From positions 74,046-96,245 of IMG/VR virus record IMGVR_UViG_2029527005_000007: 22,200 bases of DNA. The stretch is one strand, 5' to 3'. Below the pieces are notes generated by a model, which saw only the letters and a list, made by a program, of their open reading frames with translations, was not told the DNA's origin and searched no databases. Numbering within the stretch: position 1 is the first letter of the stretch; every line of letters starts with the position of its first letter. The stretch is from a virus. Below are positions 18,398-21,237 of this stretch, piece after piece. The translations under genes and the position numbers were made by a program.

Positions 18398-18409
18398 AAC
18401 TCCTCCTCT

Positions 18410-18460
18410 TATTACGTCTACCCTAGGGTAGACGTAATAGAGTGCTTTCTTTTTTTTGTT
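18410..18460 (+). terminator. Intrinsic terminator formed by a perfect 30-bp palindrome
   Basis: TATTACGTCTACCCTAGGGTAGACGTAATA (18410-18439) then a T run. Confidence 0.85.
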
Positions 18461-18831
18461 TCAAGTATTTGTGATCGGTACACACCTAAGCGATAAGGGT
18501 CATTTGTAACCGTTTCAAAATAAAAAATATTTTTTAACGGTGAAGTAATTTTCTTATAACGACACGCAATTTCAAATTCTAATAACAGCTTGAGCTGAGA
18601 TAGAAATACAGCCAAGCAACTCGGGAGATTGACGCATGCACCAAACCTTTCTGTGGGATTATTATAATAATGGGTAGTTGTAACATAGAGTACGACACCC
18701 GCTGAGTTTAGCGTATCTAGAGTTTCGTCTTAAGAAGCTACGCATTTTTCCTACTTAGGTAGTTACACACATCGTTCTTAAATGGAAGTTTCAAAACAGA
18801 TCTATCCCAATCATCTAAGGAATCAACGAAA
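18461..18831. ncRNA. Candidate structured non-coding RNA, long 5' leader or cis-acting site
   Basis: Only long non-coding stretch in the window, containing at least five hand-folded hairpins; no family recognised. Confidence 0.3.
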
Positions 18832-19713
18832 ATGCCTAACAAAGATTATGAAGCCGCTTTGAAAGAGTTCCAATCAACCCATAACCAAGTGAGCGACCTG
18901 CTGACACCGGTTGAATACGCACGCTATCAGATATTGAGTTATCCTGACAACGTATCCATCCTGAACACAGCACTGAAGAAAAAATTAGCACTCGATCCTG
19001 AGTATGAAGTATGGGTGCCGATCCACTACTATAAGTATCTGGTACTGGACACGGCGAAAGGTGTCTCTACGTTCTACACGAAGTACGCGTTCATTAGTAA
19101 CAAAGGCAATATCCACCACATCCGTAAGAAAACCAAGGCGCCACAGGGCCATACCACTCAGAGCGGACATCAGAGCTCACTGGTACGTTTAATTGATGGC
19201 CCGGTTCGCTTCTCGTTACACCGCGCAGTTGCTTGCAGCTTCATCCCCCTGCCAGAGAAGTTTAAACATGTTGGTCACGGCTACGCACAGGTTAAGCACC
19301 TTGATAGCGATAAAGCCCACAACGACTTCCTGAACCTGACATGGGACTCAAGCGTAGTCGAGCAAGAGAAAGACCTGCCGTCGAATGTTACCCAATCAGC
19401 CATTCATCATGACCATTATGGCATCCGTCCATTAATGGGTGAAGTCATCATCCCTGGCGAACACTTAGGTGTACGTTTCATCCGCTCTGGCGATCGCGAG
19501 ATCACAGACCTGCTGGGGACCTCTGGCCTGGTTGACATCGACGAAGTCCTGCGTAACAAGGTGAAAGAAGTGAACGGCATTCGCTGGACGCCTGCCACCG
19601 ATTCCGATGTTATTGTCTATGGTACTTCTGTCATTCCGACTTCGCTGGTTCGTATCCTCAGATCTTATCGCGATAACGGCAGTAATCGTGCCGCTGGTTC
19701 TATTCGTGTTTAA
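18832..19713 (+). CDS. NUMOD4-HNH-NUMOD1-type homing-endonuclease-derived protein A, probably inactive
   Basis: EVWVPI...ISNKGN (NUMOD4-like), HRAVACSF...VKHLDSDKAHNDFLNLTW (HNH_3-like) and one C-terminal NUMOD1-like unit; RBS AAGGA. Confidence 0.8.
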   Translation: MPNKDYEAALKEFQSTHNQVSDLLTPVEYARYQILSYPDNVSILNTALKKKLALDPEYEVWVPIHYYKYLVLDTAKGVSTFYTKYAFISNKGNIHHIRKKTKAPQGHTTQSGHQSSLVRLIDGPVRFSLHRAVACSFIPLPEKFKHVGHGYAQVKHLDSDKAHNDFLNLTWDSSVVEQEKDLPSNVTQSAIHHDHYGIRPLMGEVIIPGEHLGVRFIRSGDREITDLLGTSGLVDIDEVLRNKVKEVNGIRWTPATDSDVIVYGTSVIPTSLVRILRSYRDNGSNRAAGSIRV

Positions 19714-19724
19714 GCACTGATGAC

Positions 19725-19761
19725 AAGTTTCTCCCTGCTCCTCCGGGGGCAGGGGCAACTT
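19725..19761 (+). other. Strong intercistronic hairpin
   Basis: AAGTT..TCCCTGCTCC-TCCG-GGGGCAGGGG.AACTT with a poor U-tract. Confidence 0.65.
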
Positions 19762-19794
19762 ATCCTTTGGTTACCCAACCCAGGAGATATGATA

Positions 19795-21183
19795 ATGAAT
19801 GCGAAACAATATAACAGTGAATTCAAGAAATTCATCAAGAACCATAACCAACTTTCAGATTTACTCACAGCCGAAGACTTACAGCGTTATCACCAACTTG
19901 ACTTCCCCGATAACGTGCAGATCGTCCACGACGCGCTGATAGAGAAGCTGAAAGAAGACCCCGACTACGAGGTCTGGGTTCCGGTTCGTTACTTCAAGTA
20001 CCTGCTGTTGAACACGGTGACGGGTGTTAAAGAGTTTTACACCAAGTACGCCTTTATCAGCAACAAGGGCAACCTCTACCATTTGCGCAAAACCCCGCAG
20101 CTGGACGTCAAAGAAAATGATGACGAATATCAGCAGAGCGTAGTGCAGCTCACCGATGGTTCCGTTAACTTCTCGGTGAACCGTGCGGTAGCAACCAGCT
20201 TTGTCCCGCTACCCAAGGACCTCAAAGCTTACGGTTACTATGCGCTGGAAGTCAAGCACAAAAACGACCGCAAGGGCGACAACGATTTCCGCAACCTCGA
20301 ATGGTTCGCGGGCAATCAGAACGACCAGACCGTGGTGGATGTCCCTAATGTGGTTCAAACGGTTAGGGAAGATAAACCTGTGCTGAACGTGACGAGCACC
20401 GACGATCGTACCGGCGAGTTGCTTTCTATTAATAGCAAGCCTTCTTCCGGTGAACACCCTGAGCAGTACCACATTCGTCCGATTATCCTGGAAGTCATGA
20501 TTCCAGGCGATTACTACGGCGTGCGGCTGATTCGTTCTTCGCCGAAGGAACTGGATGATCTGCTCGGTCCTGGTATGGCGTCTGCAGCAGAACACGCGGC
20601 TAACCTGAACCTTACGGTATACGGTTGTCGTTGGAGCTATGCGACCAACGATGAGGTCGCTCAGTATGGTGCATTGCGTGTACCGGCTAAGCTTCGTGCG
20701 TTACTGCATGAATATGCGGCGGGTCACTGCATGAACATTCTGGGAACCCGTGTGGCTGACGGACACATGATCCTGATTGAAGGGGATCCGTTAGAGACAG
20801 AACATCTGGGATTAAACTATTCCGATATTCTGAAAGTGTGCGATGGGGAGAAAGAAGCCCACAAGGGTTATACTTTCCGTCGGGTTGACGAAGAAGAGAT
20901 GCTGCAGCTTCGTACTGCTATTGACCTTCAAACAACCCAGACGTTCCCGCAGGAGGCGCCTGTAGTGAATTTCATTATGGGAAAGCGGATCTCGGATGGA
21001 CACCTTATTTTGTTTTGCACGGATCAAGAGATTGAGTTACTGGGATGGGATCCCAAGCTCGTCAACAAAGCCGCGCGTAAACGAGGTGTTCCCGTGTACG
21101 GCTATGAGTTCGAACGCGTTACCGATGATCTTACCGCGCTGAACTTACGTAACCTGATTGCCACACAGATCACCCAATTCTAA
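19795..21183 (+). CDS. NUMOD4-HNH-NUMOD1-type protein B (462 aa), paralog of A with two extra C-terminal repeats
   Basis: AGGAG 8 nt before ATG 19795. FYTKYAFISNKGN is identical to A; VKHKNDRKGDNDFRNLEW; repeats end GYTFRRV and GYEFERV. Confidence 0.8.
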   Translation: MNAKQYNSEFKKFIKNHNQLSDLLTAEDLQRYHQLDFPDNVQIVHDALIEKLKEDPDYEVWVPVRYFKYLLLNTVTGVKEFYTKYAFISNKGNLYHLRKTPQLDVKENDDEYQQSVVQLTDGSVNFSVNRAVATSFVPLPKDLKAYGYYALEVKHKNDRKGDNDFRNLEWFAGNQNDQTVVDVPNVVQTVREDKPVLNVTSTDDRTGELLSINSKPSSGEHPEQYHIRPIILEVMIPGDYYGVRLIRSSPKELDDLLGPGMASAAEHAANLNLTVYGCRWSYATNDEVAQYGALRVPAKLRALLHEYAAGHCMNILGTRVADGHMILIEGDPLETEHLGLNYSDILKVCDGEKEAHKGYTFRRVDEEEMLQLRTAIDLQTTQTFPQEAPVVNFIMGKRISDGHLILFCTDQEIELLGWDPKLVNKAARKRGVPVYGYEFERVTDDLTALNLRNLIATQITQF

Positions 21184-21191
21184 TGTGCTGC

Positions 21192-21237
21192 TAACTACTA
21201 CTGCCCTTTGCGGGGCAGTAGTAGTATATTTTTTTGT
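21192..21237. terminator. Terminator between convergent genes
   Basis: ACTACTACTGCCCT-TTGC-GGGGCAGTAGTAGT (21194-21225) then a T run. Confidence 0.85.

Follow-up and report, generated by a model that had tools for sequence, protein, structure and literature searches.

A fixed tandem pair of I-HmuI-type HNH proteins with altered active sites behind a virion RNA polymerase gene of an uncultured jumbo phage

Organisation of the locus

Phage homing endonucleases are usually treated as transient selfish genes. We describe here two adjacent genes, termed A and B, that lie in the final 22.2 kb of a 96-kb IMG/VR record from an uncultured jumbo phage (IMGVR_UViG_2029527005_000007; this whole stretch of 22,200 nucleotides is referred to as the window), and that together descend from a mobile homing endonuclease of the I-HmuI type but are fixed and under selection. 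The RNA polymerase (RNAP) genes of the window are approximately 50% identical to their counterparts in Erwinia phage RisingSun and Pseudomonas phage EL, and gene order is as in phiKZ, with gp71-73-like and gp74-like RNAP genes, a gp75-like helicase gene, a set of small genes and a convergent gp80-type gene. A and B are placed between the small genes and this convergent RNAP gene (Table 1). In the same synteny, the convergent gene is 28% identical (E 2e-27) to phiKZ gp80, a virion RNAP subunit and head protein, and the tail-to-tail arrangement with a virion RNAP gene that had been proposed in a preliminary description of this DNA, made without database searches, is in agreement with this homology. 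The gap between the pair and the gp80-type gene is 55 bp, and this conserved essential neighbour is a possible holder of the target site. No near-identical DNA was found in isolated phages.

The A-B pair forms a unit of its own, bounded on both sides by terminators. That the genes are free-standing rather than intronic, as previously described, is consistent with these boundaries and with the lack of any Rfam match to an intron or other RNA element around the pair. The 391-nt leader of A is predicted to fold no better than shuffled sequence (z 0.10) and has no similarity to the leader of the Elvirus insertion discussed below, and it is more likely a promoter or untranslated region than a structured RNA. 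Both open reading frames (ORFs) are intact and preceded by good ribosome-binding sites (RBSs), as had been noted, and for B the RBS backs a start at 19795 (or 19789), as against the longest-ORF start at 19720. The two proteins are 43% identical over all of A (BLASTP E 1e-76) and are best conserved in their N-terminal ~120 residues; the preliminary description had made the same alignment, and the motifs that it quoted are all present. Long direct repeats, sought as a sign of gene conversion between A and B, were not found.

Both proteins begin with a helical extension, and in A this N-terminal 58-residue domain had no match in Pfam, PDB or ESM Atlas. At the C-terminal end, A has one and B has three predicted DNA-binding modules of the NUMOD or helix-turn-helix (HTH) kind. 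The modules of B gave a match to Pfam PF22083 that lies below the cut-off (21.9 bits), and VIA structural matches to small DNA-binding domains and to the DNA-binding domain of I-TevI (Z 3.5-5.0). A hypervariable linker joins the nuclease-like domain of B to the first of these modules.

Table 1. Features of the A-B unit and its flanks, with positions in the window (aa, amino acids; pLDDT, predicted local distance difference test score; pN, proportion of nonsynonymous differences)
Feature	Position	Strand	Remarks
Intrinsic terminator ending the upstream gene block	18409..18440	+	14-bp stem, then T-run
Non-coding leader of the A-B unit	18441..18831	+	no ORF with homologs; no Rfam match; ~80% identical to relatives at the nucleotide level
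Gene A, 293 aa, I-HmuI-type protein with degenerate active site	18832..19713	+	AAGGA RBS; AlphaFold2 (AF2) pLDDT 86.9
A residues 1-58, helical N-terminal extension, not in I-HmuI	18832..19005	+	four helices in model; conserved family-wide
A residues 153-180, beta-beta-alpha-Me remnant (K155, H156, N168, E177, K180)	19288..19371	+	family consensus N, H, N, N, H at these positions, with conservation of at least 90% in every column
A residues 198-285, single C-terminal NUMOD/HTH-like module, predicted DNA-binding	19423..19686	+	maps onto I-HmuI C-terminal domain
Gene B, 462 aa, I-HmuI-type protein with three predicted C-terminal DNA-binding modules	19795..21183	+	GGAG RBS; AF2 pLDDT 83.9
B residues 151-179, beta-beta-alpha-Me region (K154, H155, N167, N176, T179)	20245..20331	+	2 of 110 variable columns in residues 150-184; no helix after hairpin in model
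B residues 186-228, hypervariable disordered linker	20350..20478	+	pN 0.31-0.35 with indels; inside the 175-225 stretch of pLDDT <50
B residues 229-458, three NUMOD/HTH-like modules	20479..21168	+	repeated strand-strand-helix-helix-strand units in model
Hairpin terminator between convergent B and RNAP genes	21194..21225	.	14-bp stem, 7 GC pairs, T-run
gp80-type virion RNAP subunit gene, 3' part, cut by contig end	21238..22200	-	phrog_2962 E 1e-97; 50% identity to RisingSun gp50; 47% to EL ORF044

Relation to I-HmuI and state of the active site

A search of 1.8 billion representative proteins gave a family of 192 members, 87 of which were used for a profile and alignment. This profile matches I-HmuI (PDB 1U3E) with an E of 1.3e-25, and its second domain matches 1U3E residues 119-171. 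The structural superposition on I-HmuI suggested in the preliminary description singled out the same protein, with 1U3E the only clear structural match of the model of A (Foldseek E 6e-7; VIA Z 10.4, root mean square deviation (rmsd) 15.8 Å, 158 of 174 residues aligned within model residues 59-258), and with the model of B aligning to it over 153 residues (VIA Z 9.8, rmsd 12.5 Å). The high rmsd values reflect differing domain orientation. In the profile alignment the family consensus L-x-V-N-H ... N-L-E-W-x-T-x-x-x-N-x-x-H-A maps onto I-HmuI D74, H75, N87 and N96, which agrees with the ligand positions given in the preliminary description, as D74 falls on the pre-His Asn, H75 on the His and N96 on the distal Asn. 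The pre-His Asn, the His, the distal Asn and the His that follows it are each at least 90% conserved among the 87 sequences.

Both A and B depart from this consensus. Immediately before the catalytic His both have Lys (K155 in A, K154 in B), giving the V-K-H that had been read from the DNA at the outset, and as such neither protein provides the D, N or H that serves as metal ligand at the position of I-HmuI D74. The catalytic His itself (H156 in A, H155 in B) is invariant in all orthologs, and the structural Asn equivalent to N87 (N168 in A, N167 in B) is invariant in both proteins. At the position of the distal Asn, N96 of I-HmuI, the two proteins differ: A has E177, and B has N176, which is invariant and stands at +6 after the Trp of NLEW. 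The preliminary description saw a clearly positioned distal Asn in neither protein, and this is correct for A but not for B. Three residues beyond this position (+3), where the family has His, A has K180 and B has T179. Both models lack a proper helix beyond the hairpin, and their confidence falls sharply from approximately residue 175-180; in the model of B the residues with pLDDT <50 (175-225) overlap N176. Pfam HNH_3 gave no match to A and 14.9 bits for B, so that neither reaches the gathering score of 24.8 bits. Canonical kin scored 20.9-37.6 bits, and because only 2 of 5 of these reach the cut-off, the whole family is divergent from the HNH_3 model. In the published minimal definition of the His-Me site, the key pair is the His of strand 1 together with an Asn or His at the start of the helix, and the pre-His residue is an often-present extra ligand (PMC5714182); by this definition B is formally complete and A is not.

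The co-occurrence of these residues was counted over the 149 aligned members of the family in which the Trp of NLEW is present. An Asn or Asp before the His is found in 123 sequences, and 117 of these also keep the His and the distal Asn. Among the 26 that lack it only four keep this pair, and three of the four are B and its two orthologs. A phylogeny based on only the N-terminal part shows approximately 17 changes of the pre-His residue, and in about six of seven well-supported independent contrasts loss of the pre-His Asn or Asp accompanied loss of the rest of the site (His or helix Asn), with the reverse direction never seen among those contrasts (sign test about 0.03).

The family also includes forms of ~165 aa (~15 short representatives) that end just after N-L-x-W and so lack both the metal-binding helix and the C-terminal modules. 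Several of these also lack the His, and they are annotated as HNH endonucleases; RisingSun gp80 (L036:2498-3016), with G-H and 172 aa, is one example. Judged from their sequences such forms cannot be canonical nucleases, and the N-terminal module seems to be retained in them alone. As many of the degenerate members are short helix-less forms, degeneration of the nuclease with retention of the N-terminal module is a recurrent theme of the family.

Descent, selection and synteny of the pair

The clade of A and that of B are sister groups (SH-aLRT 97); each has a stem of ~0.8 substitutions per site, and both are nested among canonical N-H members. It is therefore most simply explained that a single N-to-K change took place before the duplication and was kept in both lines. 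In the preliminary description loss of metal ligands was shared by A and B, and this is so for the pre-His position, where the Lys is shared by descent, but not for the distal Asn, which was lost in A only.

Related sequence was available from three contigs, which represent two independent lineages. The A-B-RNAP order and intact ORFs are found in all three, and no presence/absence polymorphism of A-B was seen among them. The ratio of nonsynonymous to synonymous substitution (dN/dS) is 0.08-0.10 for A and 0.05-0.09 for B; the corresponding values are 0.06-0.10 in the RNAP gene and 0.16-0.22 in the small genes upstream. Synonymous divergence of the flanks is near saturation, with synonymous divergence (dS) >1 in flanking genes and about 1.5 in B. 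Strong purifying selection, synteny and intact ORFs at near-saturated synonymous sites argue that A and B are not neutrally decaying selfish genes, and support the earlier proposal that both have been retained under selection.

Constraint is distributed differently along the two proteins. Residues 157-187 of A are enriched in amino-acid changes (9 of 29 variable columns, p 0.001) and residues 1-156 are depleted (4 variable columns, p 5e-6), with only 3 columns in residues 1-58 and an omega of 0.005-0.05 for the N-terminal half. The motif region of B (residues 150-184), with 2 of 110 variable columns (p 0.004), is the most conserved segment of that protein, and the codons for its K, H and both N turn over synonymously with the residues unchanged. 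Our reading is that the nuclease pocket is relaxed in A and actively maintained in B.

Gene A is also an island of ~90% nucleotide identity in a background of 70-80%. Its proportion of synonymous differences (pS) against one relative, 0.285, is the lowest of 15 genes (range of the others 0.33-0.76), with the helicase gene next at 0.334 and B at 0.663. Codon bias was ruled out as the cause of this low divergence, with an effective number of codons of 49.4 for A and 49.3 for B. A co-conversion tract was sought in the 3' end of the RNAP gene and none was found, pS being highest there. The simplest reading is recent recombinational exchange of the A segment between lineages, with constraint at the nucleotide level as the alternative.

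Canonical relatives and mobility at the junction

The junction occupied by A-B is also a site of insertion in another phage group. In EL only 60 bp separate ORF043 from the gp80-type ORF044, and comparison of EL (L013) with Elvirus IR-QUMS-PaBa1 (L006:5651-7066) reveals a clean 1416-bp insertion at that junction, with flanks that are 97% identical. The insertion encodes a canonical member of the family (UZV40172.1) that is annotated only as a hypothetical protein, and its presence in one genome and absence from the other make a textbook polymorphism for a homing endonuclease gene of the free-standing kind. The arrangement in GXNNE2 and GXNNA8 is as in PaBa1, in HHBS8_1 the copy lies at another place, and several further Elvirus genomes are without a copy. 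Patchy distribution, which had been named beforehand as a sign against a selected role, was thus seen for canonical relatives at this same junction, but not for A-B. The Elvirus gene belongs to a different clade of the family from A-B, and as such the junction behind the gp80-type gene is a repeated landing site.

Canonical members are also present within the phage group of the window. A third paralog, C (~259-274 aa), is encoded ~40 kb upstream of A (G000:C1:53131-53877, the same as L003:1456-2280) and was absent from the preliminary description. It has the canonical motif V-N-H ... NLEW ... N..HA, and is probably an active, separately inserted homing endonuclease. Related contigs of 109 kb and 224 kb contain another canonical member, in a 353-aa frame (L015:1435-2493, corresponding to G001:C1:74587-75573, and L027:4944-6002), at a locus that is outside the coverage of the window's record. 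With these extra members beside A-B, each genome of the group holds at least three family genes, and because paralog C and the canonical member of the relatives sit elsewhere, canonical copies are patchy in distribution whereas A-B is stable. The genomic contexts of the nearest canonical kin, P0004 and P0007, were sought in IMG/VR and not found, and one metagenome scan for them returned the same lineage and fragments only. In phiKZ, an HNH ORF, gp72 (L035:2487-3437), lies between the two halves of the gp71/73 RNAP gene; its similarity to B is weak (E 0.006), and this distance suggests a separate HNH lineage at another RNAP gene.

Discussion

Homology to I-HmuI, the shared fold, the states of the active-site residues, purifying selection, conserved synteny and the mobility of canonical kin are all direct observations in our data, and from them we infer loss of catalysis, DNA binding and a biological role as follows. 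A-B would have arisen long ago by tandem duplication of a free-standing HNH homing-endonuclease gene of the I-HmuI type, from a family that uses the convergent junction behind the gp80-type virion RNAP gene as an insertion site. The cassette would no longer behave as a transient selfish element in this phage lineage, and would instead be fixed, inherited with its neighbours and held under purifying selection. The change from Asn to Lys at the metal-ligand position ahead of the catalytic His would date from the ancestor that A and B have in common. A would afterwards have lost the helix Asn and the His that follows it, with drift of the nuclease motif and near invariance of the N-terminal DNA-binding half, and it is these features that suggest that A became a nuclease-dead, sequence-specific DNA-binding protein. 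B would have kept the minimal His-Asn pair under very strong constraint, along with its three DNA-binding modules, and its surface would still be used on DNA. The selected role would most likely be exerted at DNA resembling a homing site, and might be to shield the site that the phage itself carries, to hamper related phages during co-infection, or to act in autoregulation. Taken as a whole, we give this explanation about an even chance of being correct. Its components differ in strength: A is very probably nuclease-dead and is probably kept for its N-terminal and C-terminal DNA-binding parts, and for B we leave undecided whether it would be a DNA binder or a weak or altered nickase.

Several points weigh against this explanation. 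The catalytic His is retained in A and B alike, and the Glu at position 177 of A could in principle bind a metal. The His-Me nucleases I-PpoI and Serratia nuclease function with one Asn ligand, and for this reason B may, by analogy, be fully active. The sample extends to three independent lineages only, the window and two others, and the lowest synonymous divergence, that of A, could be due to recent horizontal exchange and so to continuing mobility.

The preliminary description had both proteins catalytically dead and acting purely through DNA binding, as regulators or as shields of the virion RNAP locus against rival homing nucleases. We regard this as rather unlikely, if a serious competitor, and the case turns on B. 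The shared N-to-K change at the position of I-HmuI D74 is as this proposal would have it, as is the rule within the family that loss of the pre-His residue nearly always accompanies loss of the remaining site; B moreover has no counterpart of the family His three residues beyond the distal Asn, its AF2 model has no helix after the hairpin, and its HNH_3 score of 14.9 bits, with none for A, falls short of the 21-38 bits of canonical kin. However, B keeps H155 and N176, which form the minimal dyad (PMC5714182), and these lie in its most conserved segment, where codons turn over synonymously. In A, with its clearly broken site, the corresponding segment is relaxed, and this difference suggests that the site of B still matters. 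The opposite proposal, that A and B are ordinary active nicking homing endonucleases with a variant site, with Lys in place of one ligand and Glu or Asn as the other, and that they are still homing, we consider distinctly improbable. It would account for the invariance of the catalytic His and structural Asn in both proteins, for recent lateral exchange as the source of the ~90% identity island at A (the lowest pS of 15 genes, 0.285, at a codon bias like that of B), and for the position of the cassette at a junction demonstrably invaded by canonical kin. It would not account for the uniform presence of A-B in the three related contigs, for the loss from A of two family-invariant residues with relaxation of its motif, or for the lack of a low-dS signature in B (dS about 1.5), and Lys at the metal-ligand position would be expected to disfavour metal binding. 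Degenerate active sites, and the truncated or dead members that are numerous in the family (RisingSun gp80 is one), might suggest instead that A and B are decaying remnants of a selfish element without phage function. This we think scarcely credible, given ORFs that are intact in all relatives at near-saturated dS, dN/dS of 0.05-0.10 and the near invariance of the N-terminal 156 residues of A; that the relatives are simply one recent clone is excluded by dS >1 in flanking genes.

A fixed, selected derivative of a homing endonuclease, in which A would be a dead DNA binder and B a binder or weak nickase, remains the explanation that we favour. The earlier idea of a domesticated DNA-binding module is thereby partly supported: the pair is fixed and under selection and the motif of A is degenerate, but B keeps a constrained minimal dyad. 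A more specific and more speculative form of this proposal, which we advance as an unlikely extension, is that a nucleus-forming jumbo phage lineage adopted a mobile HNH homing endonuclease for good, as a module of two proteins, dead A and Lys-substituted B, that recognises homing-site DNA behind the virion-RNAP gene and guards this locus against, or competes with, the active endonucleases of co-infecting relatives. If this were true, the module would be an anti-homing immunity system derived from the invader's own scaffold. One family and one junction offer a mobile canonical form, a fixed altered-site pair under selection and many helix-less truncated forms, and since all three occur together the step from selfish nuclease to host-retained DNA-binding protein is directly testable. 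A further caution is that, among the jumbo phage genes annotated as "HNH endonuclease", many probably encode proteins unable to cut.

Comparison with known systems

A and B share the fold of I-HmuI, the nicking enzyme of Bacillus phage SPO1 (PDB 1U3E; His-Me finger group 2, HNH_3), over the whole of that protein, including the NUMOD4 sheet, the His-bearing beta-hairpin and the C-terminal HTH-like module, with conservation of the catalytic His and structural Asn. In contrast to I-HmuI, which is intron-encoded, they are free-standing, carry an extra 58-residue helical N-terminal domain, and have Lys in place of the D74 equivalent; A further has Glu for N96, and B has three C-terminal modules where I-HmuI has one. 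The canonical members of the family (Elvirus UZV40172.1, paralog C, and P0004, P0007 and P0008) have the same architecture and N-terminal extension as A and B, but keep the N-H ... NLEW ... N..HA motif that A and B do not, and UZV40172.1 occupies the same junction as A-B but is found in only some of a set of genomes with 97% identity. I-TevI acts as an autorepressor. PhiPA3 gp210, an intron-encoded HNH nickase, targets the phiKZ virion RNAP gene gp178, loses nicking activity with an H82R substitution, and has shown that enzymes of this kind can settle the outcome of competition among co-infecting jumbo phages and be favoured by selection as weapons in it (PMC11620839). Like A and B, gp210 is an I-HmuI-type HNH protein of a nucleus-forming jumbo phage that is tied to a virion RNAP gene. 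Unlike A and B, which lie outside the gene, behind a gp80-type subunit, and have altered ligands, it is encoded within an intron of the gene for a different virion RNAP subunit and has a proven active site. Loss of catalysis with retention of DNA binding in a His-Me finger has a precedent in the Smad MH1 domain, and AP2/ERF has been linked to HNH homing endonucleases (PMC5714182). I-TevI and Smad MH1 resemble the proposed A-B pair, in that a homing-endonuclease or His-Me scaffold is kept for DNA binding after or beside catalysis, although Smad MH1 has lost the catalytic His that A and B retain.

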